Part shown: positions 26,593 through 59,200 of the stretch, one piece after another | How the letters are laid out: the number at the start of each line of letters is the position of its first letter | Position numbering within the stretch: position 1 is the first letter of the stretch | Assembly (NCBI GenBank): GCA_964637295.1 | Contig: CAZWWE010000001.1 | Coordinates: 121,808-185,807, forward strand | DNA from: an uncultured Pseudomonadales bacterium | GTDB taxonomy: Bacteria; Patescibacteriota; Microgenomatia; UBA1400; PJMF01 | Reading direction: 5' to 3' | DNA length: 64,000 nt | The notes under the pieces: model-generated | The model's database searches: none | Told to the model about the DNA's origin: nothing | The model's input: the letters and a program-made list of their open reading frames with translations, nothing else | Program-made: the position numbers and the translations under genes

Positions 26593-26608
26593 AAATACTT
26601 TAAAAATG

Positions 26609-26677
26609 TTGCGGAACTAGGAGTCGAACCTAGCCTGTGGGATTATGAGCCCCACGTGCACCGTACACTATCCCGCG
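26609..26677 (-). tRNA. initiator tRNA-fMet (anticodon CAT) with reduced D-arm
   Basis: Minus-strand read CGCGGGATAGTGTACGGTGCACGTGGGGCTCATAATCCCACAGGCTAGGTTCGACTCCTAGTTCCGCAA. It shows the C1·A72 mismatch, three G-C pairs at the base of the anticodon stem (GGG/CCC), a CAT anticodon in loop CTCATAA, and T-loop TTCGACT. Confidence 0.7.
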
Positions 26678-26792: not shown

Positions 26793-26866
26793 GGCGGGAT
26801 AGCTCAGTTGGTTAGAGCATCGGATTCATAAACCGAAGGTCCTGAGTTCGACTCTCAGTCCCGCTA
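26793..26866 (+). tRNA. tRNA with CAT anticodon (elongator tRNA-Met or tRNA-Ile2/lysidine)
   Basis: GGCGGGATAGCTCAGTTGGTTAGAGCATCGGATTCATAAACCGAAGGTCCTGAGTTCGACTCTCAGTCCCGCTA: canonical cloverleaf, D-arm identical to bacterial elongator Met type, anticodon loop TTCATAA. Confidence 0.75.
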
Positions 26867-26920
26867 CAAAACAGACACCGCTAAAAAAACATTATTACAA
26901 TATCGTTTAAAAAAGCTTAT

Positions 26921-29188: not shown

Positions 29189-29539
29189 TTACTTACTAAT
29201 AATGGCCAAAATGTCTTCAAATTTCAAAAATTGATATTCCACGTCGTCAATTTTAAATTCATTGCCGCCCCATTTTTTGTAAATCACTTGATCACCAACT
29301 TTGGCGGGAGCTTTGCAAGATTGTTGACCGGATTTTTGATCTTCACATTCACAATCACATTCACAAGAACAAGAGCAGGCACAATCTTCGCCCACAGCTA
29401 AAACCACTCCATATTGCGGTTTTTCACTTTCATTTTCAGGCAAAATAATTCCAGAGGCCGTTTTTTCTTCTACCTTGGCTGGCTCAACTAAAACATAGCC
29501 TGCACTTGGCTGAATTTTCTTGATATTGAGAGCTTGCAT
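29189..29539 (-). CDS. groS: co-chaperonin GroES with cysteine-rich insertion in the roof hairpin
   Basis: 116 aa (typical length ~95). Conserved …GVVLAVG… and …KVGDQVIY… segments flank the inserted CACSCSCECDCECEDQKSGQQSC. RBS AAAGGAAAAAT precedes the ATG. Confidence 0.85.
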   Translation of the reverse strand: MQALNIKKIQPSAGYVLVEPAKVEEKTASGIILPENESEKPQYGVVLAVGEDCACSCSCECDCECEDQKSGQQSCKAPAKVGDQVIYKKWGGNEFKIDDVEYQFLKFEDILAIISK

Positions 29540-29648: not shown

Positions 29649-31274
29649 TTAGCGCACTGCCAGAGTGTACACACCCACATTTCTCACTGCGGAATTCAAT
29701 AATAAACGGTAAATACTAAGATTTTGCTCTGCATTCTCAGCAATGAGTGTTGGCTGAAGTTGCAGTTTATTGGTCGAGTTAAAATATTCTAAACACCAAT
29801 GCTCTTTGCCTTGATTCCAAGAAACCCGCGGATTATCACAAATCAAATAAATATTTTTACTGCTTTCTTTAATAGAAACAAGATTATATTTATATCTGGC
29901 TGTTTCCACCAAAGGTAACTCCAAATTTTCTTCCAAATAAAGCCAATAAGCCGGAGCAGACCAATCGAGCTGATCGTCGATCACAAAAATAAAAAAATCA
30001 CTTTGATCGGCTAAATTTAGTTTGACATCTGCACTGATCATTTTGGTTGACCAGCGATATTTACTAATCAACTCTCGGTTGGAAACAGATTGCAAAACAA
30101 CTTGCTGCTTGATGGATAAAAGAAAAAAACTCAAAAGTAAACTAGTCAAAAGCAATAAAGACCATTTTTTCTTTAAACTCGATAAAACGCTGAGCCAAAA
30201 AAGAGGAGCAGCTAAGTAGAAAACTAAAAAATAATTTTCTGGTAAACTCAAATCATCATGCGTCACTAAAAAAACTATTGGTAATAATAAAAAAACTGAT
30301 AAAAGACTTAATGAATAAAATGTTTTTTTCTTGAAAAGAAATAATATAAAAATTAAAAAAATGGATAAAGCAAGCAATATCTCGGCAAAATTAAATTCGC
30401 CACTTCTCGTCAAACCATTAAAAAAAGTATTGAGATTTAAACTGAGACTGTTTAAGTATAAAGCTGAATTAGCGATGAAAATTTTATTAAGAAAAGTAAA
30501 AAAATAAGCTAAACCCTGATCACTTCCCTTAAGCATTAGTTGATTGGCAAGCAAAAACAAGATTGCGCCTAAAATTATCAAGTTAGGATAATTTAATTGA
30601 CTCAGTAAAAATCTTTGCAGCTTTGATTGGTTTTTTGTTTTAACATAAAATTTGTATTGTAAATAAGCGCTCATAGTCATCACCCAAGGCAAGAGAATCA
30701 AAGCAGCGTAATGCAAATTTAAGGCCGTAAAATAAAAAATAAGCGCTAAATTTAACTGATTAATTGCTTGTTTTTTATAAGCAGCTAAAAAATAATAAAA
30801 AGACATCATTAAAAATGGCGCCAATAAGTAGGGTTGGAAAACGCTTCTGCCGTATAAATTAAAAGTTGGCATTAAACAAAATAGTAGTACCGTGCCATAG
30901 CGTCTGATTTTGTCAGCAAACAGCAATTTGGCAAATAAATCAGCAAAAACTACCATGACTGAAGTTGAAAAAATGGCAAACAGTAATTGATAATAAAAAA
31001 CTTGACCAAATGAAAGCAAATAAAAAACCGCAAGAAAATAATAATAAAAAACACTGTTGGCTAAATAATTGTGACTTCCCGCCGCCCAAGGGGCAATCCA
31101 CTTAAGATCCTGGTATTCGACGATGTGTTTGGCTACCAAAAAATCCCGAGTATTGTCAGCAATCCAATCATAAGTTTGTTCAAAACGATAAAAACGCAGT
31201 CCGATCGCAAAAACAATGAATAGCAGAAAAACATAATCAAGCCAAGTAAGCTTGTTTATTTGGCAAAACTTCAC
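29649..31274 (-). CDS. polytopic membrane protein, possible GT-C-fold glycosyltransferase (ArnT/PMT-like)
   Basis: 541 aa, >10 predicted TM helices, and an N-terminal loop with conserved acidic residues. Weak family assignment. Confidence 0.35.
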   Translation of the reverse strand: MKFCQINKLTWLDYVFLLFIVFAIGLRFYRFEQTYDWIADNTRDFLVAKHIVEYQDLKWIAPWAAGSHNYLANSVFYYYFLAVFYLLSFGQVFYYQLLFAIFSTSVMVVFADLFAKLLFADKIRRYGTVLLFCLMPTFNLYGRSVFQPYLLAPFLMMSFYYFLAAYKKQAINQLNLALIFYFTALNLHYAALILLPWVMTMSAYLQYKFYVKTKNQSKLQRFLLSQLNYPNLIILGAILFLLANQLMLKGSDQGLAYFFTFLNKIFIANSALYLNSLSLNLNTFFNGLTRSGEFNFAEILLALSIFLIFILFLFKKKTFYSLSLLSVFLLLPIVFLVTHDDLSLPENYFLVFYLAAPLFWLSVLSSLKKKWSLLLLTSLLLSFFLLSIKQQVVLQSVSNRELISKYRWSTKMISADVKLNLADQSDFFIFVIDDQLDWSAPAYWLYLEENLELPLVETARYKYNLVSIKESSKNIYLICDNPRVSWNQGKEHWCLEYFNSTNKLQLQPTLIAENAEQNLSIYRLLLNSAVRNVGVYTLAVR

Positions 31275-31289
31275 TCTACAAGTTTACCC

Positions 31290-31658
31290 TCAGCTTCTTA
31301 GGCCTTCAACTCCATAAAAAAGTGCATTAATCAAAGAGATCGATTTGCGCATATCCATGGCTAATTGCATCGACAATTGAGCTGTTTCTTGATCGACCTG
31401 CATGCCTTCCAAAGTTAAATTGGAATCGTCAACAAAAGTTTTCATTAAATTATCAAGAAAAACTTTGTTTTCAGTTACAAAAAGTTCTCGCTCGCTTTTC
31501 TTTTTAAGCATTACTTTTTCCAAATGAAAAACAATTTGTTGCATTTCTCTCGAACGTAAATAAAGATCAAATTTGAGATCAGCGCTATCTTCAATTGAAA
31601 CTAAAGTGGATAAATCAAGATTATTTAAAAGTTGGTAACTGTTATTACTTTTTGGCAT
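31290..31658 (-). CDS. hypothetical protein
   Basis: 122-aa ORF immediately upstream of the membrane protein gene; no recognisable motif. Confidence 0.3.
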   Translation of the reverse strand: MPKSNNSYQLLNNLDLSTLVSIEDSADLKFDLYLRSREMQQIVFHLEKVMLKKKSERELFVTENKVFLDNLMKTFVDDSNLTLEGMQVDQETAQLSMQLAMDMRKSISLINALFYGVEGLRS

Positions 31659-31689: not shown

Positions 31690-32748
31690 ATGAAAATATT
31701 AAAGCTCAATTCTAATCGAGAGCAAATAATCACTGCCGCAGTCACTTGTCTAAAAAACGGTGGCTTAGTAATTTATCCGACAGAAACCGTTTATGGCATA
31801 GGGGCCATAGCCAACAATTCCATCGCGATTAGTAAGCTTTTGCAATATAAGGGTCGTCGTGAAGGCAAACCTCTGTCTATTGCTGTCACTGACCAAAAAA
31901 TGGCAGAAAAATATGTCGAGATCAATGAACAGGCTTTGAAATTTTATCAAAACTTTTTACCTGGTCCTTTTACTGTCATTTCAAAAAGTAAAAATCGAAC
32001 TGATCCTAGAGTTAACTCTGAATTTGGGACTTTGGGCATTCGTATTCCAGACTATCCACTCATTATTGAGATAATTAAAAATCTTGGCCAGGCCATCACT
32101 AGCACTTCCGCTAATGCTTCTGGTAAAAAACGACCCTACACCATTCAAGATATTTTTGCTGGCTTATCAGAAAAACAAAAATCTTTAATTGACTTAGTCA
32201 TTGATGCTGGCGAATTGCCCAAAAATGAGCCCTCGATCGTAGTCGATACTACACTCTCCACGCCAATTGCTTTGCGCGGATCATTGCAAGACGAAACAGG
32301 CGAAGTTCTATGGAGTGCTAGTGAGCAAGAAACCATTGAATTATCGGGCAGACTTTTACTCAATCACTTAAATGATTTGCAAAAAAACGGCCTAGTAATT
32401 GCGCTTAACGGACCGCTGGGAGTGGGCAAAACTATTTTTGCCAAAGGCGTGGCTAAATTCTTAGGGATCAAAGAAAACATTAATTCTCCCACCTATTCAT
32501 ATGTCAATGAATATTCATACAAACGTTTAAGCACAAAAGGCACTTTTTATCACATTGATGCCTGGAAAGTTGACGATCAAGCAGCAGTGAATTTTCTGGA
32601 AATTGAAAAAATGATTAAAAAAAATAACATTGTGCTCATCGAGTGGTTTCAGCAAATCAGTCAGTGGTTAAAATTAAATCAAAAAACTAAGTTACTAACT
32701 TTGAATTTTAGTGAAGAAAATCAGCAAAGAAAAATCATTATCAAATAA
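31690..32748 (+). CDS. fused TsaC(YrdC/Sua5)-TsaE(YjeE) t6A biosynthesis protein
   Basis: N-terminus: YrdC signature NGGLVIYPTETVYGIGAIA. C-terminus: TsaE P-loop NGPLGVGKTIFAKGVAKFLGI…SPTYSYVNEY…HIDAWK. A -10 TATAAT lies just upstream. Confidence 0.7.
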   Translation: MKILKLNSNREQIITAAVTCLKNGGLVIYPTETVYGIGAIANNSIAISKLLQYKGRREGKPLSIAVTDQKMAEKYVEINEQALKFYQNFLPGPFTVISKSKNRTDPRVNSEFGTLGIRIPDYPLIIEIIKNLGQAITSTSANASGKKRPYTIQDIFAGLSEKQKSLIDLVIDAGELPKNEPSIVVDTTLSTPIALRGSLQDETGEVLWSASEQETIELSGRLLLNHLNDLQKNGLVIALNGPLGVGKTIFAKGVAKFLGIKENINSPTYSYVNEYSYKRLSTKGTFYHIDAWKVDDQAAVNFLEIEKMIKKNNIVLIEWFQQISQWLKLNQKTKLLTLNFSEENQQRKIIIK

Positions 32749-32749
32749 A

Positions 32750-33880
32750 ATGCCAAAAATTTTAGCGATTGACACCAGTTGTGATGACAGCAGCGCTGCT
32801 ATTGTAGATGGCTCAACGGTGCAGAGTAATATTGTAGCCTCACAAAACCAAATTCATAAGCAATATGGCGGGGTTTTCCCAACCGTTGCTAAAAGTGAAC
32901 ACCAAAAAAATCTCGATCCCACCATTCATTTGGCCATGAAACAAGCACAGGTTGCCTGGTCAGAAATCGTGGCGATTGCCGTCACCATTGGTCCTGGCTT
33001 GGCTCCAGCACTTGAAGTGGGAATCGAAAAAGCCAAAGAATTGGCCCAAAAATATCACAAAAAAATCATTGCGGTTAATCACATTGAAGCTCATGCTCTC
33101 TCGCCTTTGGCGATCAATCATGGTCAAAAAAATAGCGGTGCGGCAAGAATAAATCTACCTAGTCTAGCGCTGGTCATTTCTGGCGGGCACAGCGAATTTA
33201 TTCTCGTAAATAAGATCGGCCATTACCAGATTATTGGCCAAACCATTGATGATGCAGCTGGCGAATGTTTGGATAAAGTTGGTCGCTTGTTGAATTTAGG
33301 CTATCCAGCTGGGCCACTCTTGGAGAAATTTGCTAAAAAAGGTCATCCTGATAAGTTTACTTTTCCCAAAGCCATGACTGCTCAGGCTAATTTTGACTTA
33401 AGTTTTTCAGGACTCAAAACTGCTGCGCGCACTTTAATTGATGATTTGGCAAAGCAAAAGCAATTAGACAAACAAAGCATTTATGATTTGGCCCTCGCCA
33501 TACAAACAGCGGTTTTTGCTCAAATTGCCTATAAGTTAGAAAGAATTTTGTTCAGTCCCAATTTGAAACAAAAACTTTATCCCCATCGCGATTTTATGAA
33601 ACATCTCAAAAAAGGCCAAATCATACCTAGTGAAATTAACGAAATTTGGCTTGGTGGCGGCGTCGCCGCCAATATAAGCTTGAGAAAAATAATCAGAAAA
33701 ACTCTTCGGGAATATCAACAATTGAGTAGCAAAAAAATCGAATTAAAAGTTCCTTATAGCAAAAAACTTTGTGGGGACAATGCGGCCATGATTGGCTTAG
33801 TTGCAAACTTTAAATACCAAAAAGGCGAATTTGCAAATAGTGCTATTTTGGACCGAAAACCAAATTTAAACATTTCTTAA
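32750..33880 (+). CDS. tsaD: tRNA N6-adenosine threonylcarbamoyltransferase TsaD (Kae1/YgjD family)
   Basis: ILAIDTSCDDSSAAIV…, metal-binding HxxH region (…NHIEAHAL…). The ATG is 1 nt after the fusion-gene stop. The track ORF begins upstream at 32711. Confidence 0.8.
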   Translation: MPKILAIDTSCDDSSAAIVDGSTVQSNIVASQNQIHKQYGGVFPTVAKSEHQKNLDPTIHLAMKQAQVAWSEIVAIAVTIGPGLAPALEVGIEKAKELAQKYHKKIIAVNHIEAHALSPLAINHGQKNSGAARINLPSLALVISGGHSEFILVNKIGHYQIIGQTIDDAAGECLDKVGRLLNLGYPAGPLLEKFAKKGHPDKFTFPKAMTAQANFDLSFSGLKTAARTLIDDLAKQKQLDKQSIYDLALAIQTAVFAQIAYKLERILFSPNLKQKLYPHRDFMKHLKKGQIIPSEINEIWLGGGVAANISLRKIIRKTLREYQQLSSKKIELKVPYSKKLCGDNAAMIGLVANFKYQKGEFANSAILDRKPNLNIS

Positions 33881-33916: not shown

Positions 33917-35728
33917 GTGAAAGAGGCTCAATTCGTATCAATTTTAGCTCATCCTAGAGTAGATTTTTGTGCTGAGGTTGTAGCCAATCACAATCGCCAG
34001 CTAGTGATTGCCTATTCACTTAAAGGTCAAAATGCCAATAGTTTTTGCAAAGATTTGGCCCAAGAATTTTCAGGCTGGCACATCAGTAGTCCAGAAAATT
34101 TGCATCAAAAAATTCTTGATCTTTTAGTTTTTACTCATCAAGCAAAACTAGAATTAGCTTTTTCTCTCGCTTGTTTGCCAGCCATTGATCAACCGCAATT
34201 GCAAATCATTTTAGCGAGTTTTAATGGCCAAATTATTTTACAAAGAAAACAACAAGCCAAAATTATCCTGGAGAGTGTGGGTGAAATTAAAATGATTGTC
34301 GGCAACTGGCAAGCAAATGACCAAATTATTTTAAGCAATCAAGCGGCTAAAACCTTCAATGAAAACATTTTCAAATTATTGGAGGCGCAGGTCAGCCAAG
34401 AAAAATTGATTGCCTCACTGAGTTTATTGCAAAATCAAAAGCAAGACTTAGAAAGTAGCTTGGCCCTTGTGACTTATCAAGAAAAAATTTTTGCGGCCAC
34501 TCAGGTCATTCAGCATAGTCAAAAACAAAAAATTCAAAACTTATTCAAAAAAATTCAAACAATTGCTTTAAAAATCCCTAATTTTTTCAAAAAAATTAAA
34601 GATTTAATAAAAAAAATTTATACATGGCTCAAAAAACAAAATAGAAAAAAAGTAATCATCGCTCTTTTAGCGATTTTAGCTTGCATCATCATTTCTACAA
34701 CTATAGGTCTATGGCTCAAGCAGGATAAGCAAAAAAAATTGACGGCCATTCAAACCCAAATTGAATTAATCAAACAGGAAACTAGTCAAATTGATCAATT
34801 AGTATTACAACAACCGTTACTTGCCAGAGAAAAAGCACAAACTAGTTTAATAGCTTTGCAAAACTTGAAAAAAGAAAATAATCAGCCAAGTAGCGCGAAG
34901 CTCATCGATGCAGCCATCGCCCAATTAGAAAATCAAATTGCTCAAATTGCTGGAGAAAACTCTTTAGATCGTTTGTCGATTGCTTATGATTTAGGTAACT
35001 TTCTAGGGACTAAAATTGCACTAGCAAATGAAAATATTTATGTTTTGGAAAGCAATAATCAAGAAATTTTAAAAATTAATGCAGATCGCAGTCAAGAAAA
35101 AATTGCTTTAGCAAATACAAGCAAGCTCCAAGATTTTACGATTAGCGACAATAAATTATTTATTTTAAGCAATGGTTTACAAATGCTCGACTTACTTGCA
35201 AAAGAGCGTGGGTTTAGCACCATTAAACAGACGGGTGAATCAGATCGAGAAGCCAACCAACTAGAGAGTTTTGGCCCATACTTATATTTGATCAATAAAA
35301 ATAAACGCAACATCTATCGTTACTATTATCACAATGATCAATTAAGTGAACCGATCGGTTGGTTGATTGACAAACAAGGACTTAGTTTTGAACAAATCAA
35401 TGACTTAGCGGTCGATGGCGACCTGTGGCTAACAACTAAAAGCGGTCAAATCATGAAATTTAGTAAGGGTTCTCAAGTAGATTTTCAAATTAAAGGTTTA
35501 GGCAGCTTGCCTAATAGTCCACTTACTCTGAGTACTAATGAACAGATTGATCGCTTGGCGGTCTTAGAAAAACAAAACAAACGCTTACTAATTTTAACTA
35601 AAGACGGTCAATTAATTAATGAAATCAAAAGCAATGAATTATCTGGTGTCAGTAGTATTACTTTTAATTCAAATGGACAAAAAATTTATGCCCTCAGTGG
35701 CTCAATTATTTACGAAATAACCTTATAA
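33917..35728 (+). CDS. hypothetical membrane protein (central TM helix, C-terminal possibly beta-rich domain)
   Basis: 603-aa ORF; TM segment VIIALLAILACIIISTTIGLWL; no assignable domain. Confidence 0.4.
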   Translation: MKEAQFVSILAHPRVDFCAEVVANHNRQLVIAYSLKGQNANSFCKDLAQEFSGWHISSPENLHQKILDLLVFTHQAKLELAFSLACLPAIDQPQLQIILASFNGQIILQRKQQAKIILESVGEIKMIVGNWQANDQIILSNQAAKTFNENIFKLLEAQVSQEKLIASLSLLQNQKQDLESSLALVTYQEKIFAATQVIQHSQKQKIQNLFKKIQTIALKIPNFFKKIKDLIKKIYTWLKKQNRKKVIIALLAILACIIISTTIGLWLKQDKQKKLTAIQTQIELIKQETSQIDQLVLQQPLLAREKAQTSLIALQNLKKENNQPSSAKLIDAAIAQLENQIAQIAGENSLDRLSIAYDLGNFLGTKIALANENIYVLESNNQEILKINADRSQEKIALANTSKLQDFTISDNKLFILSNGLQMLDLLAKERGFSTIKQTGESDREANQLESFGPYLYLINKNKRNIYRYYYHNDQLSEPIGWLIDKQGLSFEQINDLAVDGDLWLTTKSGQIMKFSKGSQVDFQIKGLGSLPNSPLTLSTNEQIDRLAVLEKQNKRLLILTKDGQLINEIKSNELSGVSSITFNSNGQKIYALSGSIIYEITL

Positions 35729-49732: not shown

Positions 49733-50263
49733 ATGTGGAAAAAGAAAAGCTGGCCAAAATTTAATTTATTTCAAAAAATTTTTGCTAATCAAAAAATCGC
49801 CTTGTTGATCAGTTCTTTGGACAAATTCTTTATTAAATTACCTCACTTGCCTAAAAAACTCAGGCTACTGATCAGCCGTTTTGTGCCTTTCTTAGCCTTG
49901 ATTTTCGGTTTAATTGGCCTAGTAGCGAGCATATTGGCTGGTTCTTTTGTCGTTCTGGGCTTGCTCGCCGGCGAATGGGGCTTTTTAGCTGAAAATGCCT
50001 TCAACTTTGGGATAACTTTGCTAAGCGCCCTCCTGCTACTAAAATCTTTCAAACCGCTGCGGGCGGGCAACGCTGTGGGTTGGATTTATCTTTTTTGGTC
50101 AGAAATTTTGGAAGTCATCAACTTGATCGTGCGCACCATCAATCAAGAAAGTGGTTTGATTTGGAATTTAGTCATAATCATCTTGAGTTTTTACTGCTTA
50201 TTTGAAATTGGACAATTCTACGTGTATAAGAAAGAGAAGGAAAAAGGATTAAATACAATTTGA
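49733..50263 (+). CDS. hypothetical membrane protein (3-4 TM)
   Basis: 176-aa ORF convergent with and overlapping the 3' end of the giant gene. Confidence 0.35.
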   Translation: MWKKKSWPKFNLFQKIFANQKIALLISSLDKFFIKLPHLPKKLRLLISRFVPFLALIFGLIGLVASILAGSFVVLGLLAGEWGFLAENAFNFGITLLSALLLLKSFKPLRAGNAVGWIYLFWSEILEVINLIVRTINQESGLIWNLVIIILSFYCLFEIGQFYVYKKEKEKGLNTI

Positions 50264-53200
50264 TTCTTAAGTTTTTCATATAAAGAATTTAGAAGTATTT
50301 CTTCATCATTTAAGTTATCACTATTTGTTTCAAATGATTCTAGACCAAAAACATCTAGTCCAATACTTTCTAAAAAGCTCTTACCATCATAGATTGTTTT
50401 TTCTGTGCCGTTTATATAGTCACTTAGATGATCATTTCCTATTCTTAACAACATTCTGTTTATAGCAGCCATGTTTTTTACAAATAATCTCATATTCAAA
50501 GGAAATTCTAGCTTAAGTCTATCTGTTTCTTGCATCATGGCATTAAAAAATGAAATTTGTGAATTACTATCTGTATCGCGTTTGATTAGCTTTTCTTTAA
50601 GAGCAACTCTTAAATACGAAGCGTAGGCTTTCCAATAATTAAATAGTCCACTTTTTCTAACTTGATTACTGTTTAATAGATATCTTGTCAAATTAACAAA
50701 TTTATGAAAATCAGTTTCTTGATTAGACAAGAGAATTTTTATTAAATCAACTTCTTCTTGAGAAAGAACTAAATAATAACTTCTGTCGATAACTGAAACA
50801 TTGGATAAGGCTTCATCGGCCATAATATTTCCAATATGCAAATCAGAGTGCAAAATATAAGCTGTTTTACCATCTGCCAAGGTAACAGGGTAATTGAGAT
50901 GTTTGACATAATCGGTAACGATATCAGAAATCAATTCTTCAATACGCTTCGCTCTCTCATTATCCTGATTATTCACATGATGGTTTTCGCTAATTAATTC
51001 ATTTTCAAAATTTGCAATTAGATTTTTTAAAGTATCGCCCTCAACATAATCTTCAATTTTAATCCAACGGTTATAAATTTCGTGCTTGTTTGAAGTATTG
51101 AAAGTAAAACCAAACCTCGATTGATGTGGATATAATTGATTAAACAGGATGTCATTCGAGATAAAATTTTTATCTTGTATGTCTTCAGTATTCCATTGCT
51201 CTAGAGTATTAATTAATCTTTGAACAACTTCGTAATTTTTCTTATTACTTTTATCTAACTTCTGCAAATCATTGACAACTGACTCCACTAAAGTTCTCGT
51301 TTCTGCTACATCTATAATCACATTGGGATTACTGATTTTAAGAACTTTCATAGTTATCTCATCGTTCGTTGGATTGAGAATTTCCACTAGATAAGTTGTA
51401 TTAATTGATCCACCTCCAATTTTTTTAATGATTCTGATATTGGGTAATAATTCTTTGAGCTGCTTTGCTTGCGCCAAATTATAATCAATTTCTTCTTGAG
51501 AAGCTGCATTAGCTGGATTTTGTAAGGAATCAATGGCTGTTTCTGCACTTTGAAATAAATTCGCCATATATAAATTTGAGGCATTATCATAAACACTTAA
51601 AAATTCTTGCTGCAACTCTTTTGGTAAATCAAAATATTGACCAAATACTTGCAAAAACCGCACTCCCAAGCTGCCCAAGCTTTTAGCCAATTCAACAATG
51701 AATTGACCGGTCTGAATCTTACCGTTATTGCTTAAGTTTTGAATTGGCTCTCTTTTAATACCAAACTTTTTTAAACTTCTAAGAGCAATATTCTCAAATT
51801 GAGCGTTGAGATCAAAGACAAACTGATAATTACTGTTTTTGTTTATAACAATATTTTTATCTTGATTGAATAAATTTGTTAGCATTTTTCTAACTTTTTC
51901 TCGATAGTCCTCTGCAACGTCTGATGGCAAATTTTCACTGATTATTGTTTCAACTGCATAATTATTACTGACCGCTCTAGGATTTCCCTGCAAAAAACTA
52001 TCAGCTAGGGCTCTAGAAATACCCAATTCAATGCGCGTTGAACCTTCAACCTGGGATAAAGTTGAGCTAATAATATTTTTTAAAAGAGGTTTTAAATTTA
52101 ATTCTTCAGAATCTTCAAGCTGATCAGTTAAAAATGTAGCTATTTTGAGATGATTATCCTCATTCAATAGTAATTTTTCAGATAGCAATTTGGCAATAAA
52201 AGCTGTTTTTTCTAATTTTGATAAATTATAGAAACTCGCCACAAATTCCTCAAAAGTTGGAAAAGACGTTAATCCTGGACCAGACAAGTTGCCATTTTCA
52301 TCAACAAAAACGCTTGTTTTTTTGTGAATTAAGTAACTCGCTATTATAGAAAAAGCTTGCAAACTGCCGGAGTCTCTATCATAAGTTAATAGCGATGAAT
52401 AATATTTTGCTAAATAGTATTTAACTTTTTCGTGATCTCCTTTTATTGAGGCTTCAAAAAATCCGAGTAAATCTGTCTCATTCATATTAGTAATATAGTT
52501 TGAAACTAGAGTATCAACAGCAACTGTTCTGTCTAAACTCTTTTGCTCCGACCCCAAACTTTGATTTAAACTCTGATCTTCAGAAATAATTTTATATTCC
52601 TCAAAAGTTTTGACATGACTTTCTAAGAAAAAATGTATGTATTGATTATGTCCATTTTCTAAAGATTGTTTGAGAAAATCATACGCCTCATTAAAAGGTA
52701 ACTCTTGAAAGAGCTTAATCGCAATTTCTTCAAGAATTTGATTTTTAGTTTGCAATGAAGGGAAATTTTTTTCAAGAAAATTATACAAATCAACTCCTTG
52801 TAAATTTTTGGATTTTTCTTCAACAAACTTTAATTCATAGCTGATCAAGGGTTTTAATAAATTTGCTTCAACTTCATTGGTTCCAAAATAATATTCTTCA
52901 CCAGCTGTTCGATCTATGGCCGAAGCATAACGTCCGTTAGCTAATTCAAAAAACCATCTTAATTGAGTCGATACAGAAAAATTTATTGTTTCAGGAGCAA
53001 AATGAATACCTGGTCGAAAACCACTAATGTCTTGATTGATATCAGAAATATTTAAAGTGTTTAAATAGTTTTGCAATTCTTGGATGATCGTAAAATTACT
53101 AAACAAAGAAAAATTTTTATTAGACAATGGAGTATTTTTGCAAGCTTCTCTGATTTCATCAAAATATTCAGCTAAAATCTGCCATTCTTTGTCGTAAATT

Positions 53201-56200
53201 AGACTTTTTAGATAATCTAGGTACTGATCCTGAAGTTGCCTGTTTAGATCCAAAAAGGCTTGATCTATATTCGTTTGATCATCGAAATCCGACAACAAAA
53301 ACGAGTTCTTAAAAAAAGTAAGAATAAAATGTTGAGCCAAGATAAAACTATTGGATTCAATGTCTGCTTCACCTGAAAAAATTTGTTTAAAATTATTTTC
53401 ATTTAAAGCGAACTTAACTAATAAATTATTTAAAAAAACTCGATCTTCTAATTCTAGAAAGCTATGATTTAAGAAATCACTTAGTGTATCAACATCAAAT
53501 CTTGTGACTGGTTTATTTTTTGTAAAAATTGTTAATATTTTTTGATTAAATTCTTGAATTTTTATCTCTTGCTCTGGTTGATTAAGCTTAGAAACTCCTT
53601 TATAAGCAGAGAGGTCAATGTAGGTGTCAGTATCGTCATTTCTTTTTTCATTAAGATCGAGTTTCTTTTTAATATAATTAAAATATTCTTCTCTTTTTTT
53701 TAATTCACTATATTTAAAATTATTATTCGAATATTCTAAAATTTGATCTTTAGACCAATTTGGGTTTTGTAGCATTAAATTTATCAATCTGTCCAAATAT
53801 GGTTCTGGATCTAAATCATTTAATCGAATTTCGCTTATCAAGCGATCTTGAAGATCAAGAGATAATGAGTACAAGTGATAGCTTATTGAATGTGCATAAG
53901 CTTGCTTGCCCAGATTTAGACCGCCTGCGAACTGAATAATTAATGGAAATTCTTTTTCTACATCATCGAACAAATCGGATATAGTTTTCCTCAGATTTTT
54001 ATTTTTTAAAAACTCTCTGCGACTTGATAATTGAAAATCAAGAATTGATTGTGGCTTCAAGACTAAATCCGGCTTATTCTTTTCAAGAAGACTTGACCAA
54101 GGATCTTTATTTAACAGTTCCTCATAATATTGGCTATTTAAGTCGGCGTCACTTGGTTTTAGTTTGTTAACTAGATTTCTAGTTTTAAAAAATAATGGCG
54201 AGATAGAAAAATATAATTTGTCATAATCAAAGAGAAAATTAAAATGGAATGCTTCAAAAAAAAGATCTACATGATTATATAAATCGCCAAATCTATCTGT
54301 AGAACTATAGGAAGAAATCCAAAGCAATTTTATCCCTTTGAGTTGATCAGTGTTTACATGAAGATCTCTAAGTAAGTAATCGAATTTTTTGAACTCTTGA
54401 TCAATTATTTCAAGAGTTTGCTGAAATAGAATTGTATTGTAAAGCTTTTGCCAAAAACCAATACTCTTTTTCGATGAATTGTTTATATAATCTTTAGTAT
54501 TACTGACTCTTTTTCTAAAATCAGGAACAAAATTTTCGTAGTATTGTTTTTTAATGCTTGGATTGGCAGCAGAATACAGCCCTTCCCAAACTGCATTTTT
54601 TTTCGAATTGCTTAATTCATAGATAAAACCAAAATTAGTAGCTTTCTTCCACGAAAAAGGCATTGCGGTCGGTCTAATATTTTCTGCAATACCTAATTCT
54701 TGAAAATTAAAGGCTACTTCTAAATTTATGTTTCTATTAAATAAAGAGCCATGATCTAAATCAGAAATTATTTTGAATTTACTCATATTAAAGAGCTGAA
54801 CACCTCTATTACCCCAAAAAGATTTTTTGGCGGTTCTATTATCCGAATAACTACCAATAATTTCTGCGGCTCCCTGAAATGCTTTTGGTTGATACCCTAA
54901 TCTGCCCAACCTGAGCAAAGATGTTCTATCAGCTTTGTATTCTTGTGCTCTACCACTAGTTAATTCAGATAGCATGTCGTTCCAATTCAAAAAATTATCC
55001 TCAAAGTGAGAAAATTCATGAACTAAAATGGCAAACAATTGATCTTTAGTTTCTAATGCATTAATTAAGCCCTGATTAACAACTAAAGAACCATCAGGCA
55101 AAGCAAAAGCATTTAATCCTTGATTAAGAGATACATAAACCTTTGCCTTTGGCAAAGGTTCTTTACCAGCTTCTGCTCTTTCTTGATTAATTAAGTCTGC
55201 TAATTGGTCGACAAAGGTTTGGATATCTCTTACCATTTCATCATCTGTGCTTAAAAATCGAGTGTTGTAATGCTCAGCATTTAAAATATTCCTAATTTCC
55301 TCTAAAACTTCTTCTTTACTTCTCTGCCAATTTCCTTGTATGTGATCAGTGCTATTCAAAGCTATTTCTTGAGAAAGGGGAATTAAATTCATTTTTTTAT
55401 CTAAATCTAACACTGATGTAATGTATGAATTTAATTTTGAGTTTCTTTCTTCTTGATTAAAGTTTTGAGTAAAACCACGCTTTAGCAAAACACTAGCATC
55501 TGTTTTTAATATTCTAGCTTGATCAAAAAAAGTAAAAAATGAAAATCGTCTGCTAATTACATTCTTTATTCCCTGTAATACTCCGCCAATAAGTTTATTG
55601 CGGTTTAGTTTGCCAGCCTTTTCTTCAAATTCAGCCATTTGCTTGAGACCAACAATTGCTGCTGCTTGATTACCTTCTAGAAGATCATTAACATCAGAGA
55701 TTTCTTGCGGAGTCAAATTGAGAGTTTCTGTTTGACGACCAATGCTTAAAAAGCCGGGTTTAGTTACTATGGTCATTTGTTTACTTGCTAGAATTTGCTT
55801 CGCAATGAGAGTGGCTTGATAGACAGAAGTGATGGCACGAGTTGTATCTGCTTTAGTTTGTCTAATCTCTGCTTCTTTAGTATCGACCCAAGCATTGAGG
55901 TAAAGCTGAACACACTGGTTTTGCATACCGTGTGAATTGACCACTTGAAGCCTGGTATCACTGAGTTGTTTAAGGGCTGCTTGTTTCTTATCTGCTGCTT
56001 GCTGAGTAAGAGTTTGCGCTTGCTTCAGATCCCCAGCAGTTTCAGCCTCACCAACTTGCACAAGCAGAGCTTCTGCTTCTTGCATCAGGGCATTCGCCTT
56101 TTCTACTCCAGCTTGGGTATCTAAGCGCACTTGATTGCAATCGGAGCAGAGGGAGGAAAAATCGAGTAAATTTGATTCAGGGCTATCTGTTTGCAAAGAT

Positions 56201-59200
56201 TGATATTCAACATTGATGGAATTAAGGGCTGATCTAAATCTGTTCTCAGTTTCAGTAAAAGAAGGATTGTCAGTTAAATTTACTTCAATAAGGTGATTGA
56301 GCAAATAATCTTTATACCTAATTTCTAACAATATCTTTTTCTTTAATTCTTGAAATTTCAATAAATCAACAGTTTGGATTCCTGCTTCGTTTAAAATTAT
56401 TGGCAAAGATAAATCTTGTCCAGTGAAATAACTAAAATTACCCATTTCATTTTCAAATAATTGACTCAATAAATCGTTAAGCTCTTGTTGATATTCATTT
56501 ATTTCCTTATCAAAAGAAAATTTAGCGGCAGTCTTTTTAAAAGCAATAGAAAAAATTATTTTGCGTAAATCCTGCGAAGATGTAATTTCTGGAGGCAAAT
56601 CATTTTTATAAATTCTAAACAACATTTCTAATTCATGTTTCAAATTTTCAATATCTGAGTCTCTAATTTCAGAAACTGCTGAGTTTTTGACATAATCAAT
56701 AAAGATTTTATTTTGAGAAGACAGATGACTAATGATTTTCTTTAAAACTATTGCGACATCCTGCCATTTTTTTGGCTGACCAGGTATTGATTTTGCTACT
56801 TCTATATAAATACTTAATTCATCAATAGCACTGAACGCTTGTAGCAAATTAATGCTACTGGGTAAATCCTTTTCCATTTGTAATTGAGGAATTACTTTAT
56901 CAAAATCATTCAAATTGATAACTAATTTTTCATCTTTATCAACCTCTAATGCAAGTAGGGTGTTAAAAAAAGGAGCTCTCTGCTGCAATCTTCTTTGTAA
57001 TTCAGCGAATACATCTTTAAATAAAAGAGTGGCAAAATCTGATGGAGTATCGTGAATAATTCTTAGAAATTCAGTTGAACCATATTTTGCTTCAATTTTT
57101 TCTCCTAAAACCATGCCTAAGGCATAGGGTCTTAAATATGAGAGATTAATTGAGGCAGCTCTATTTACATAGTTACTAAAAATTGAAAAATCTATAGCAC
57201 CAATCAATTGATTGCTTTGGCCTTGTTTTTTCAGGCCGTTAGAAAATGTTTGGAGAAACCTCGCGCTTGCTCTTTCTCCTCCCATTTCTCCAATAAAAGT
57301 TGATAAATTTCTTTCTGTTTCGTAAGTAAAATGGTCATTTTCCTTCAATATTTGAGTTAAACTAGATATTGAATCAGAATCAAATCTGGAACTGTCAAAA
57401 ATATAATCCAAAACTTCATTAGTGTTTTGTTCTGTTCGTCTAGGCTTGGCAAGCCTATCAACTGCATGATCAACTTCATGAGTAATTGTCGTAATGCAAT
57501 CAAACAAAGACCTGCGATTTAGCTTGTTATTAATAAAAATGGGATGTAAGGTATCATTATCTTTTATTGGCTGAGCATATGCATTGGCAGACTCTTCAAA
57601 AACACTACTAATAATTGGAACGGTTACTTCTTTGCCATTTTTTTTGATTAAGATAGTCGCAATTGGCAAATCTCGACTTAAAGATAAAAATCTTGACAGC
57701 TGTTGTTCATCGGTTAAAATGGTGGCAATATCAGCTATTTGTTGATCACTTAGTCTTTCAACAGAAATTCTAATGATTTCTACCGATTCTTGATAAATTT
57801 CTTTAAAATATTCTTCTAAACTGGCAGCCGCTCCGGCTTGATTGAAAAAGATTTTTGCTTGCGGATCTAATAGTTTATTTATTAAAACCTGTTGCAATTC
57901 AATAGAAACATCCTGTTTTTTAATAGAATCCATTAAATTGGAAATTGCATATTGTATATCTGGATATAAAGATTTAGCACGAAAGATAAATTCTCGCTCG
58001 ATGAAATAAGGTAGGGAAGAAATTTTTTTCGCATTAATTTCATACGAACCATCTGTTAAAATCGTTGCTAAACCTGCTTTAACTAATGAATCAAGATAAT
58101 TTTTTGCAAAATCTAAATTAGAAGAAGTGTCATTAGTTATTAAATCTAAAAGTTGTTTCGGAGATCTGATTTTTTCCTCCGTCTGATCAAATAATTGATC
58201 CGCTTCTCCAACACCTAAATCAGAAACAAGTTGATCTTCTTGGCTTAATTCCTCAAAATTAAGCCAAATATTAATCATTGTTTCTTTTACACTACTAACG
58301 GTTGCTTGCCCCAATTTGATTCCAAATAAATTGCTTTTTAATTCTTTTTCTTCTGTAGAAAAATACATTTGAGCCAATTCTGAAGTACCAATAACTGGAT
58401 TTTTCCCATCTTCTCTGCTGGTGGCTGTTAACAACAGCAATAATCTAATTACTTCAGATTTATAATTAACTGTAATATGTTCACTTAAAAGTTCTTGAAG
58501 TAGCTCTTGTTCGCTCAATCCTTCGTGCTTAACAGTTAGTGCTAGTAATTGAGCAGTTCCTTCATTGAGATAATGATGAAAAACAACGCGATTCGTATTT
58601 TCATATTCGAATCCGCCAAGAGCTAGGGTTTTAATTAATTCTGATGTAACAATGAAATTAACATCTAATTGAGCTGCCTTTTTTTTGTTAATTAAAATTT
58701 CGGTATGTTCAAGAAAATCCAATCTGACATAGCCAAAACTATTAAATTGCTCATTAAGAGCACTGGAAAAAGATTCAATACTATTTTCGTCTTCGATACC
58801 TTTTTCTACTAACCAAGTTAATATTTTATGCGATAGTTGTTGTGAATTTGCCAAGACCGCCTTAGATTTACTTGCTCGCATAATTCCTTCATCTGAAGCA
58901 GAAAACTTATCAAGTAAAACAGATCTGATTTCATCAATCTCAATTATTTCTAGATTTTCGTCCTCATCGGAGTTAACATTCTGACTCAAATTTTCTTCAA
59001 GAATAGGATCAATTTTTTGAGCGTTGACACTTTGAGAGTTTTCAATATGCCTAGCAATTTGCTCTAATTCCTCTAGAGTTAAGGTTTCTAAAGGATCAGC
59101 AATTAACAAGGCTTGACCAGAATTTGTTTGCCATTCACCAATCACATTAATCAACTCAGTTTTGCGTTGTTTTTCAGCAACAAGTCTAGCCGATTCGTGC

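Follow-up and report, generated by a model that had tools for sequence, protein, structure and literature searches.

The analysed DNA, referred to below as the window, is a stretch of 64 kb from an ultra-small bacterium of the CPR/Patescibacteria, in which the gene designated tsaCE is followed on the same strand by tsaD and preceded by orf122 on the opposite strand (Table 1). The 352-aa product of tsaCE consists of a complete YrdC-type TsaC, a join of about eight residues and a complete TsaE P-loop ATPase. A previous sequence-only reading of this DNA had described a single ORF joining both enzymes, and the domain searches bore this description out. In Pfam, PF01300 (Sua5_yciO_yrdC) matched residues 21-196 (E 1.5e-45; 155.3 bits versus a cut-off of 25.1) and PF02367 (TsaE) residues 212-348 (E 2e-27; 96.1 bits versus 26.6), and the curated NCBIfam cut-offs were exceeded by both TIGR00057 (171.2 bits; cut-off 123.2) and TIGR00150 (88.5 bits; cut-off 60.1), the latter being the TsaE model that the C-terminal half passes. 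Neither a frameshift nor a stop codon between the two halves was found in 31690-32748.

Table 1. Features of the tsaCE-tsaD region, numbered from the first base of the window
Feature	Position	Strand	Remarks
orf122	31290-31658	-	
tsaCE (TsaC-TsaE fusion)	31690..32748	+	ATG start; 352 aa plus stop; single ORF
TsaC domain	31690..32277	+	residues 1-196; YrdC-type, single-domain L-threonylcarbamoyl-AMP synthase
KxR motif, K54-G-R56	31849-31857	+	in TsaC domain
SxN motif, S140-A-N142	32107-32115	+	in TsaC domain
Linker GSLQDETG	32278..32301	+	residues 197-204; length and sequence vary among homologues
TsaE P-loop ATPase domain	32302..32745	+	residues 205-352
Walker A GPLGVGKT	32410-32433	+	residues 241-248; in TsaE domain
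SPTY	32485-32496	+	residues 266-269; in TsaE domain
HIDAWK	32551-32568	+	residues 288-293; in TsaE domain
EW	32641-32646	+	E318-W319; in TsaE domain
Junction TAA-a-ATG	32746..32752	+	TAA 32746-32748; base a 32749; ATG 32750
tsaD	32750..33880	+	tRNA N6-adenosine threonylcarbamoyltransferase; 376 aa

The two domains of tsaCE and the adjoining tsaD

Alignment of 70 homologues showed that K54, R57 and N142 of the TsaC domain are invariant and that R56 and S140 are conserved in at least 90% of the sequences. The KxR and SxN motifs, present here as K54-G-R56 and S140-A-N142, provide the active-site tetrad of the TsaC family. In Foldseek comparisons, the fold of this half resembled that of E. coli YrdC (1HRU; TM 0.81, rmsd 2.7 Å). 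Judging by its sequence, the N-terminal domain would convert threonine, bicarbonate and ATP into L-threonylcarbamoyl-AMP (TC-AMP).

TsaE proteins are recognised by the Walker A motif GxxGxGKT, by an SPT(F/Y) peptide inserted into the TsaD site and by the Glu of EW, which binds Mg (PMC6009658). In the C-terminal domain, all the motifs by which TsaE touches TsaD or ATP in the solved TsaBDE complex are kept, namely SPTY, Walker A and EW (PMC6009658), and G241, G244, G246, K247, T248, S266, P267, Y269, H288, D290, W292, E318 and W319 are invariant among the 70 homologues. According to Foldseek, its fold is similar to those of H. influenzae YjeE (1HTW; TM 0.77) and of T. maritima TsaE within TsaBDE (6S84; TM 0.69). 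The tsaCE model has a mean pLDDT of 90.1 and two confident domains, with values below 50 only at residues 196-201; it does not fix how the domains are oriented to each other (pTM 0.76, linker disordered), and the linker corresponds to a gapped, unconserved stretch of the homologue alignment. The tsaCE product unites in a single chain two complete bacterial t6A enzymes, each with a fold of its own, whose functions are predicted: TC-AMP synthesis for the first, and for the second the role of the ATPase that repeatedly binds and leaves the TsaD transferase. In public databases it is named plain TsaC or "threonylcarbamoyl-AMP synthase", a label that hides the TsaE half, so naive gene-presence surveys would score TsaE as missing.

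As in TsaC2/Sua5 proteins, there are two domains, with YrdC first and an extra domain beyond a linker. The TsaE domain sits at the same C-terminal place as SUA5, and the best whole-chain Foldseek matches were two-domain Sua5/TsaC2 structures. Both observations would fit a TsaE domain acting as a stand-in for SUA5 that would gate or regulate TC-AMP synthesis in cis instead of cycling on TsaD. However, these matches superpose the YrdC half only (rmsd 13-15 Å), no conserved linker motif resembling that of Sua5 was present in the homologue alignment, and no second, free tsaE was seen within the 64-kb window. Furthermore, the C-terminal half has no PF03481 match and is a TsaE by sequence and by its YjeE/TsaE fold, with SPTY, Walker A and EW conserved (PMC6009658), which makes a SUA5-like role very improbable.

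The start of tsaD 1 nt past the tsaCE stop, as previously noted, was read directly on the DNA, and public gene calls also give a product of 376 aa with this spacing, which is typical of translational coupling. The mechanical ORF listing gave an alternative in-frame GTG at 32711, but the ATG at 32750 is favoured because of those gene calls and of the MxxILAIDTS N-termini of the homologues. Promoter and terminator scans yielded promoter-like sites no better than those in shuffled sequence. The tsaD product matched PF00814 (E 1.6e-71) and TIGR03723 (318.7 bits; cut-off 296.1) and is of the bacterial type, its best PDB matches being bacterial TsaDs (about 1e-55), with Qri7 at 4e-31. The metal-binding H111-x3-H115 is present, and about 27 extra residues were found at 274-301 relative to solved TsaDs. 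The locus does not encode a YrdC-Kae1 single chain, as tsaD is a separate ORF beyond a stop codon and the fusion partner of TsaC is TsaE.

Distribution of the fusion

Metagenome assemblies carry a general risk of artefacts, and two adjacent genes might have been merged by a lost stop or a frameshift, or tsaCE might be a pseudogene, although nothing specific supported this. The identical 352-aa protein was found on 16 contigs from separate assemblies of at least four samples. A survey of related genomes, as the sequence-only reading had suggested, identified both domains in all of the 120 best database relatives (54-100% identity) and the fusion in 14 GTDB species-representative genomes, mostly of Patescibacteria, down to 35% identity. 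These three observations refute the artefact or pseudogene reading, to which we give practically no probability; in addition, both halves exceed the curated cut-offs and their motifs are intact. On the same comparative grounds, the TsaC-TsaE fusion is considered real and under selection.

Among 11 informative loci, tsaD follows tsaCE on the same strand at a distance of at most 1 kb in 10 and directly abuts it in seven. Another gene lies between tsaCE and tsaD in three relatives, and in one tsaD is not nearby. These genome comparisons show that a large branch of Patescibacteria (CPR) has kept the fusion together with tsaD.

The literature searched contained nothing relevant on a named TsaC-TsaE fusion or on t6A in Patescibacteria, and the fusion is also absent from the published fusion surveys examined (PMC4615747, PMC3571937). 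One "TsaE-TsaC" string found in the literature was an engineered expression cassette and not a natural fusion. The TsaC-TsaE fusion is a variant of the known t6A system which is widespread in CPR/Patescibacteria and undescribed in the literature searched.

Searches for a TsaB partner

The sequence-only reading had recognised no TsaB in the window, and profile searches of all window ORFs agreed with it. TsaB was not detected by Pfam in any ORF of at least 150 aa nor by NCBIfam at E<=1 in ten uncharacterised ORFs, small ones included. Among the stop-to-stop ORFs of at least 50-70 aa, all of which were searched with E. coli TsaB (phmmer), an HMM of 46 TsaB sequences and a mini-TsaB HMM, only tsaD was matched. 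These probes, together with a TsaD N-domain HMM, were applied to the window and more than 170 loci; at the fusion loci they matched only TsaDs, and, as a control, TsaB was recovered beside stand-alone tsaE in dozens of loci. The 10 kb on either side of the fusion contained no TsaB in any of the 14 species genomes. Where a CPR TsaB was sought among other neighbours of stand-alone tsaE, tsaD, a coiled-coil membrane protein, YjeF or DapA was found instead, and mini-TsaB and the TsaE domain gave no matches in viral contigs.

Nevertheless, a possible lack of TsaB, at which that reading hinted, was not supported, since the window covers 64 kb of a genome of about 1 Mb and a TsaB could be overlooked when that of CPR relatives has merely 100-130 aa. 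This mini-TsaB of other CPR bacteria, usually encoded in a tsaE-tsaC-tsaB operon, spans positions 1-90 of the 212-position TsaB model. The partner of the fusion is probably a mini-TsaB of 100-125 aa encoded elsewhere in the genome. It is unlikely, on the other hand, that the fusion genomes have no TsaB of any size and that TsaD forms a homodimer like mitochondrial Qri7, which would still use the TsaE domain delivered by TsaC. If this were the case, these bacteria would make t6A with two polypeptides, and TsaE would bind elsewhere than at the TsaB-TsaD interface. The only binding partner of canonical TsaE is the TsaB-TsaD heterodimer (PMC6009658), and surveys have reported the loss of TsaE alone or with TsaB but not its retention without TsaB (PMC4615747).

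The idea that orf122, a gene conserved beside tsaCE in seven loci, encodes a TsaB or Pcc1-like partner in disguise was rejected. Its product looks all-helical in alignment, has no family match and gave an hhalign probability of 0.2% against mini-TsaB; besides this evidence, it was dropped because orf122 stands at the head of a groES-groEL gene array.

Known systems and the hand-over of TC-AMP

Only a small number of tRNA modifications are shared by all organisms, and t6A is one of them. The TsaC1-type synthase, the TsaE ATPase and the bacterial-type TsaD encoded here correspond in sequence, motifs and fold to the enzymes of the canonical bacterial set of E. coli, B. subtilis, T. maritima and A. 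aeolicus (free TsaC/YrdC plus TsaB-TsaD-TsaE), and the two-step chemistry is presumably alike. Unlike that set, TsaC and TsaE form one polypeptide and TsaB was not found nearby. A stable contact of TsaC with TsaBDE has not been reported in canonical systems (PMC3571937, PMC7913687).

In TobZ, HypF and pandoravirus TsaN, too, a YrdC-type domain that forms an adenylate shares one chain with the machinery consuming it. In these proteins the YrdC-like domain is combined with a Kae1/TsaD-like domain, whereas in tsaCE the partner is a regulatory ATPase and not the transferase, so that any hand-over requires a second protein, TsaD. An internal channel carries the intermediate in TobZ and HypF (PMC10484737, PMC9654439), but no channel connects the two sites of the viral TsaD-TsaC fusion TsaN (PMC10484737) and, as a consequence, a fusion by itself does not guarantee one. 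Physical complexes have been inferred from Rosetta-stone fusions that involve t6A components or neighbouring genes, such as archaeal Kae1-Bud32 (PRPK) and bacterial YeaZ-RimI-YgjD and Alr-YjeE (PMC4615747, PMC3571937), although none of them links an accessory subunit with the enzyme that makes TC-AMP.

Such a link does exist elsewhere in the same broad group of bacteria. Other CPR bacteria have overlapping tsaE-tsaC-mini-tsaB genes, a cluster also present in L178, and two CPR proteins (P0287 and P0307) are TsaC-mini-TsaB fusions with both NCBIfam models above cut-off. With the TsaE fusion, this makes three ties of TsaC to the transferase complex in CPR. The gene arrangements differ, as in those loci the order is E-C-B or a C-B fusion and tsaD is not adjacent, whereas in the window a C-E fusion is followed by D, and B was not found within 64 kb. 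The core t6A pathway has been remodelled in CPR bacteria, where TsaB has about half its usual size and subunits are fused, and the two fusions and the operons provide comparative evidence for TsaC working beside the complex.

Whether TC-AMP is handed over from TsaC to TsaD or reaches it by diffusion is stated as open in the field, where the presentation of TC-AMP by TsaC to TsaBD has been called "a major question" (PMC7913687). The fusion bears on it, and tsaCE is a ready-made natural protein for probing hand-over. [quoted passage not shown] We consider it fairly probable that, by docking where the TsaD active site opens, the TsaE domain keeps TsaC close for the hand-over of TC-AMP. TsaE is located at the entrance of that site, into which its SPT(F/Y)T peptide dips; its presence keeps tRNA out, and the active site of T. 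maritima TsaD is then partly unfolded, for which reason hand-over cannot simply coincide with docking (PMC6009658). In the proposed cycle, the ATP-bound TsaE domain would dock at the pocket entrance like free TsaE in T. maritima. As only 8-17 residues separate the domains, TsaC would stay within a few nanometres of the pocket, with TC-AMP bound and protected on it. Hydrolysis of ATP would then reset TsaD and release the TsaE domain, after which TC-AMP could be loaded from the still-nearby TsaC, tRNA would bind and A37 would be modified. The tether and the cycling of TsaE would therefore couple the reset to the reloading of a labile intermediate. Moreover, the fusion would set a 1:1 ratio of TsaC and TsaE activities, with tsaD co-translated. 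Channelling of TC-AMP by the fusion is a reasonable proposal, indirectly supported by the three CPR ties described above.

Besides the exclusion of tRNA by bound TsaE, several observations count against hand-over: canonical systems run in vitro on free, added TC-AMP (PMC7913687), the viral TsaN fusion lacks a channel (PMC10484737), the domains have no fixed orientation in the model, and in the relatives mentioned above a gene intervenes (three) or tsaD is not nearby (one). The fusion might instead only save a promoter and a start site in a streamlined genome and provide equal amounts of both enzymes, TC-AMP diffusing freely and the tether having no kinetic role. This would be in line with the use of free TC-AMP by canonical TsaBDE in vitro (PMC7913687), with the unconserved linker predicted to be disordered and with the small, gene-dense genomes of CPR bacteria. 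For cultured members of the group, tsaC, tsaE and tsaD genes that are separate and in part scattered over the genome suffice: in the supplementary table for Southlakia, TsaC/TsaD are separate from TsaE and a 130-aa TsaB, and in Minisyncoccus TsaE, TsaD and TsaC are dispersed, with no second PF00814 among the table entries listed. Such an economy-driven fusion is possible but rather doubtful, because TsaC is joined to subunits of the complex in two ways (TsaE and mini-TsaB) and operon-linked to both, which points to a physical relation and not to one of regulation alone, and because the fusion has been retained across divergence to about 35% identity.

The TsaC-TsaE fusion protein

A single 352-aa ORF joining TsaC to TsaE had been claimed from the sequence alone, and its position was confirmed in our analysis. 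The domain search suggested there identified Sua5_yciO_yrdC at tsaCE residues 21–196 (Pfam, E 1.5e-45) and TsaE at residues 212–348 (E 2e-27), and the protein exceeded the cut-offs of the NCBIfam equivalogs for L-threonylcarbamoyladenylate synthase (171.2 bits; cut-off 123.2) and TsaE (88.5 bits; cut-off 60.1). In an alignment of 70 sequences, the TsaC active-site motifs KxR and SxN, as well as the Walker A, SPTY, HIDAWK and E-W motifs of the TsaE half, were all invariant or nearly so; the linker, of about 8 residues in the window protein and up to about 17 in homologues, was gapped and unconserved. The AlphaFold2 model obtained from this alignment had a mean pLDDT of 90.1 and a pTM of 0.76 and, because pLDDT fell below 50 only at residues 196–201, the product is predicted to comprise two folded domains separated by a short flexible linker. 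Foldseek matched the first half with Escherichia coli YrdC (TM 0.81, 2.7 Å) and the second with Haemophilus influenzae YjeE (TM 0.77, 2.5 Å) and with TsaE within the Thermotoga maritima TsaBDE complex; no chain spanning both halves was found in the PDB. Since no SUA5 domain is present, tsaCE can be described as a short TsaC with TsaE at the position that SUA5 occupies in TsaC2, and an intramolecular, SUA5-like action of this TsaE domain was considered very improbable.

The identical 352-aa protein was called on 16 contigs, four of which were inspected (three from different sequencing runs, the fourth from an NCBI assembly) and had identical neighbours and a 1-nt gap to tsaD. Both Pfam domains were present in all of the best 120 database relatives (54–100% identity); those named by their source bear only the name 'L-threonylcarbamoyladenylate synthase', and the named ones are assigned to Patescibacteria, Pacebacteria, Paceibacterota or Woesebacteria. 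Likewise, a scan with one genome per GTDB species revealed, among the matches listed, at least 14 loci matching across both halves (35–55% identity), among them a Beckwithbacteria MAG and a Patescibacteria genome in a single contig of 1.15 Mb, and 66 further loci matching a single half. The survey of relatives proposed by the sequence-only reading thus recovered the same fusion. Some fusion loci carry non-CPR taxon labels as deposited (e.g., Pseudomonadales, Vitreimonas), and five so labelled (L005, L008–L010, L012) retain part of the window gene order, for instance with orf122, groES or groEL beside the fusion. An identical product on 16 contigs from multiple sequencing runs and an architecture kept in relatives leave an artefact practically no likelihood, and indicate that tsaCE encodes a real, conserved and, judging from its sequence, bifunctional protein.

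Surveys of t6A genes list HemK-TsaC (Mycoplasma), Kae1-Bud32, HypF and TobZ (PMC4615747, PMC9654439), and the SyntTax study names the fusions YeaZ-RimI-YgjD, Alr-YjeE and hydrolase-YeaZ and remarks that YrdC had not been reported to contact the YgjD complex directly (PMC3571937). The fusion search of the TsaN paper covered TsaC joined to TsaD only (PMC10484737). Public databases already contain the TsaC-TsaE architecture along with its precomputed Pfam domains. In the full-text literature searched, whose scope excludes most subscription journals, it appears undiscussed: no natural fusion was found as TsaC-TsaE, TsaE-TsaC, YrdC-YjeE or TsaCE, nor anything relevant on t6A or TsaB in Patescibacteria. 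Pathway fusions are common, and nothing in this one departs from the known t6A chemistry.

Coupling to tsaD and a proposed hand-over of TC-AMP

The junction reads ...ATC AAA TAA a ATG CCA AAA ATT TTA GCG ATT GAC ACC AGT..., and the same gap occurs in public gene calls, which bears out the earlier claim that tsaD begins 1 nt past the fusion stop. The mechanical ORF list started tsaD at an upstream GTG (32711); the ATG is favoured both by public gene calls and by how homologues begin. The 376-aa product (TIGR03723, 318.7 bits; cut-off 296.1) belongs to the ordinary bacterial type of TsaD; it contains H111-x3-H115 and, near 274–301, about 27 additional residues. The stop-start spacing suggests that the fusion protein and TsaD are made together. 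Of the 11 species loci that reach far enough (among the at least 14 listed), 10 have a same-strand tsaD after the fusion; it abuts the fusion in seven and is separated from it by one other gene in L005, L006 and L016. A HIT-family gene, like that inserted in L016, also adjoins tsaE in Southlakia. In the Beckwithbacteria locus L013, no tsaD was found within 6.9 kb of the fusion. One lineage has a stand-alone tsaE directly followed by tsaD with no adjacent tsaB. This E-D order matches the latter part of the fusion locus and could represent the state either before or after fusion. With TsaC joined to TsaE and tsaD coupled behind them, the window locus is a novel version of the established bacterial t6A system.

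Features of the window and of fetched loci from other genomes or contigs (L numbers)
Feature	Position	Strand	Remarks
tsaCE	31690..32748	+	ORF list; ATG start, 352 codons
TsaC active-site KxR	K54-G-R56		tsaCE residues; 70-sequence alignment
TsaC active-site SxN	S140-A-N142		same
Walker A GPLGVGKT	residues 241-248		same; TsaE half
SPTY	residues 266-269		same; TsaE half
HIDAWK	residues 288-293		same; TsaE half
E-W	residues 318-319		same; TsaE half
tsaCE stop	32746-32748	+	read in sequence
tsaD start	32750	+	read in sequence; one spacer base after tsaCE stop
Gene between tsaCE and tsaD	L005:11073-11984	-	
Gene between tsaCE and tsaD	L006:11078-11605	+	
Gene between tsaCE and tsaD	L016:11133-11501	-	HIT-family protein
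tsaE then tsaD	L046:9977-11515		stand-alone tsaE
tsaE then tsaD	L086:4016-5537		stand-alone tsaE
tsaE then tsaD	L102:1737-3226		stand-alone tsaE
mini-TsaB	L115:10977-11303		
mini-TsaB	L108:1282-1644		
mini-TsaB	L173:6001-6330		
mini-TsaB	L174:6001-6354		
mini-TsaB	L176:10001-10366		
mini-TsaB	L178:10001-10336		
orf122	31290-31658	-	122 aa, apparently helical; divergent upstream of tsaCE
603-aa protein	33917-35728	+	flanks t6A genes; no family match
541-aa protein	29649-31274	-	flanks t6A genes; no family match; membrane-protein-like
GroES	29189-29539	-	Cys-rich loop insert DCACSCSCECDCECEDQKSGQQSC
Giant ORF	50218-63981	-	4587 aa; three domain matches
tRNA(CAU)	26608-26677	-	divergent pair
tRNA(CAU)	26793-26867	+	divergent pair, ~115 nt apart

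In the canonical pathway TsaC produces L-threonylcarbamoyl-AMP (TC-AMP), a labile intermediate, and TsaD paired with TsaB moves the threonylcarbamoyl group to A37. In its ATP-bound state TsaE occupies the mouth of the TsaD pocket, where it touches TsaB and TsaD, inserts its SPT(F/Y)T peptide into the TsaD active site and keeps tRNA out (PMC6009658); ATP hydrolysis by TsaE reactivates TsaD after turnover in T. maritima (summarised in PMC11648230). [quoted passage not shown] Since the TsaE domain of tsaCE is attached to this TsaC C-terminus by a short linker, a TsaC loaded with TC-AMP would be brought next to the opening of the TsaD pocket whenever TsaE docks; once ATP has been hydrolysed and TsaE released, TsaC would stay at high local concentration and reload TsaD ahead of tRNA. 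However, docking and loading could not coincide if TsaE in the docked state obstructs the TsaD site and partly unfolds it, free TC-AMP is enough in vitro, TsaN shows that a fusion does not have to form a channel (PMC10484737), and the lack of linker conservation also speaks against hand-over. The main rival, that the fusion fixes co-expression and stoichiometry only, was regarded as less likely. A docking-based hand-over of TC-AMP is the more probable reading, and the fusion allows a direct test of an acknowledged open question.

TsaB and a half-size TsaB family

Pfam, NCBIfam and three local profile searches, with ORFs down to 50 aa, detected no TsaB in the 64-kb window, as the sequence-only reading had noted, and in the 14 species loci listed the 10 kb on either side of the fusion contained none, the comparison in relatives that it had proposed. 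These searches were sensitive: among metagenome loci from a scan seeded with the TsaE domain, E. coli TsaB alone as query recovered TsaB genes (~210–300 aa) after stand-alone tsaE in dozens of ordinary bacterial loci.

Two low-GC loci of the TsaE-seeded scan contained tsaE, tsaC and a 108-aa TsaB-like gene consecutively. Such mini-TsaB proteins scored 73–96 bits (TsaB equivalog cut-off 69.3) and span only model positions 1–90 of 212, the N-terminal part with the GPGSFTG helix. A word-indexed search gave 5553 relatives, the best 120 of them all of 107–128 aa and one from Candidatus Curtissbacteria; an exhaustive profile search at E ≤ 1e-10 yielded 1555 cluster representatives, with about nine-tenths of the best 150 not exceeding 130 aa. 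This large family of CPR-type genomes (100–125 aa) usually lies in an overlapping tsaE-tsaC-tsaB cluster 3' of ftsE-ftsX-PcsB-LTD genes; mini-TsaB adjoins tsaE, and mostly tsaC too, in four contexts, and tsaD was absent within ~6 kb of the operon in the two operon loci checked. In two proteins of the profile search, P0287 (297 aa) and P0307 (289 aa), TsaC is fused to mini-TsaB and each model scores above its cut-off, by sequence a second, distinct covalent tie of the TC-AMP synthase to a transferase-complex subunit. P0345, grouped with them, is a fragment. No paper on the mini-TsaB family was found.

Southlakia epibionticum, a cultured Saccharibacterium, has neighbouring TsaC and TsaD genes and a 196-aa TsaE that adjoins a 130-aa TsaB missed by Pfam and named by PGAP; all four genes (SEML1_0047, 0048, 0713, 0714) are 'NE' (non-essential) in the transposon-sequencing table (PMC10633639 supplement). 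In E. coli the t6A genes are essential. The mini-TsaB family and this 130-aa TsaB indicate that CPR bacteria possess a TsaB that is reduced and easily overlooked. The window organism probably encodes a mini-TsaB elsewhere in its genome, one reason being that the asymmetric TsaB-TsaD pair is the sole form to which canonical TsaE binds, homodimers not being bound (PMC6009658); a 'missing TsaB' in fusion-bearing genomes would be the less probable reading. Taken together, the fusion and the half-size TsaB show that CPR bacteria have remodelled a universal pathway in a way for which no report was found.

Neighbouring genes and other window features

The window is a CPR housekeeping region (IF-2, NusA, DnaK/J, GrpE, HrcA, ATP synthase, FtsH, Ddl, GroEL/ES, SmpB, Cmk, PBPs, RNR). 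The small gene orf122 matched no family and was kept divergently beside tsaCE in seven related loci; as the first gene of a minus-strand array (orf122, the 541-aa putative membrane protein, groES, groEL), it was treated as a neighbour and not as part of the t6A unit. Its candidacy as a TsaB relative was rejected (hhalign probability 0.2%). The 603-aa protein has a homologue at the equivalent position in L007 only (phmmer 6.8e-66). A Cys-rich GroES insert comparable to that of the window, which may be a metal-binding site, was present only in this closest species relative and absent from seven others. The giant ORF contains FHA (721–785), metallophosphoesterase (1097–1332) and M48-peptidase-like (2933–2995) stretches, and no family matched outside them. 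Finally, one tRNA(CAU) is initiator-like (C1/A72 mismatch, GGG/CCC anticodon stem) and the second resembles an elongator-Met or Ile2 tRNA and has A37, which makes it a likely t6A substrate.
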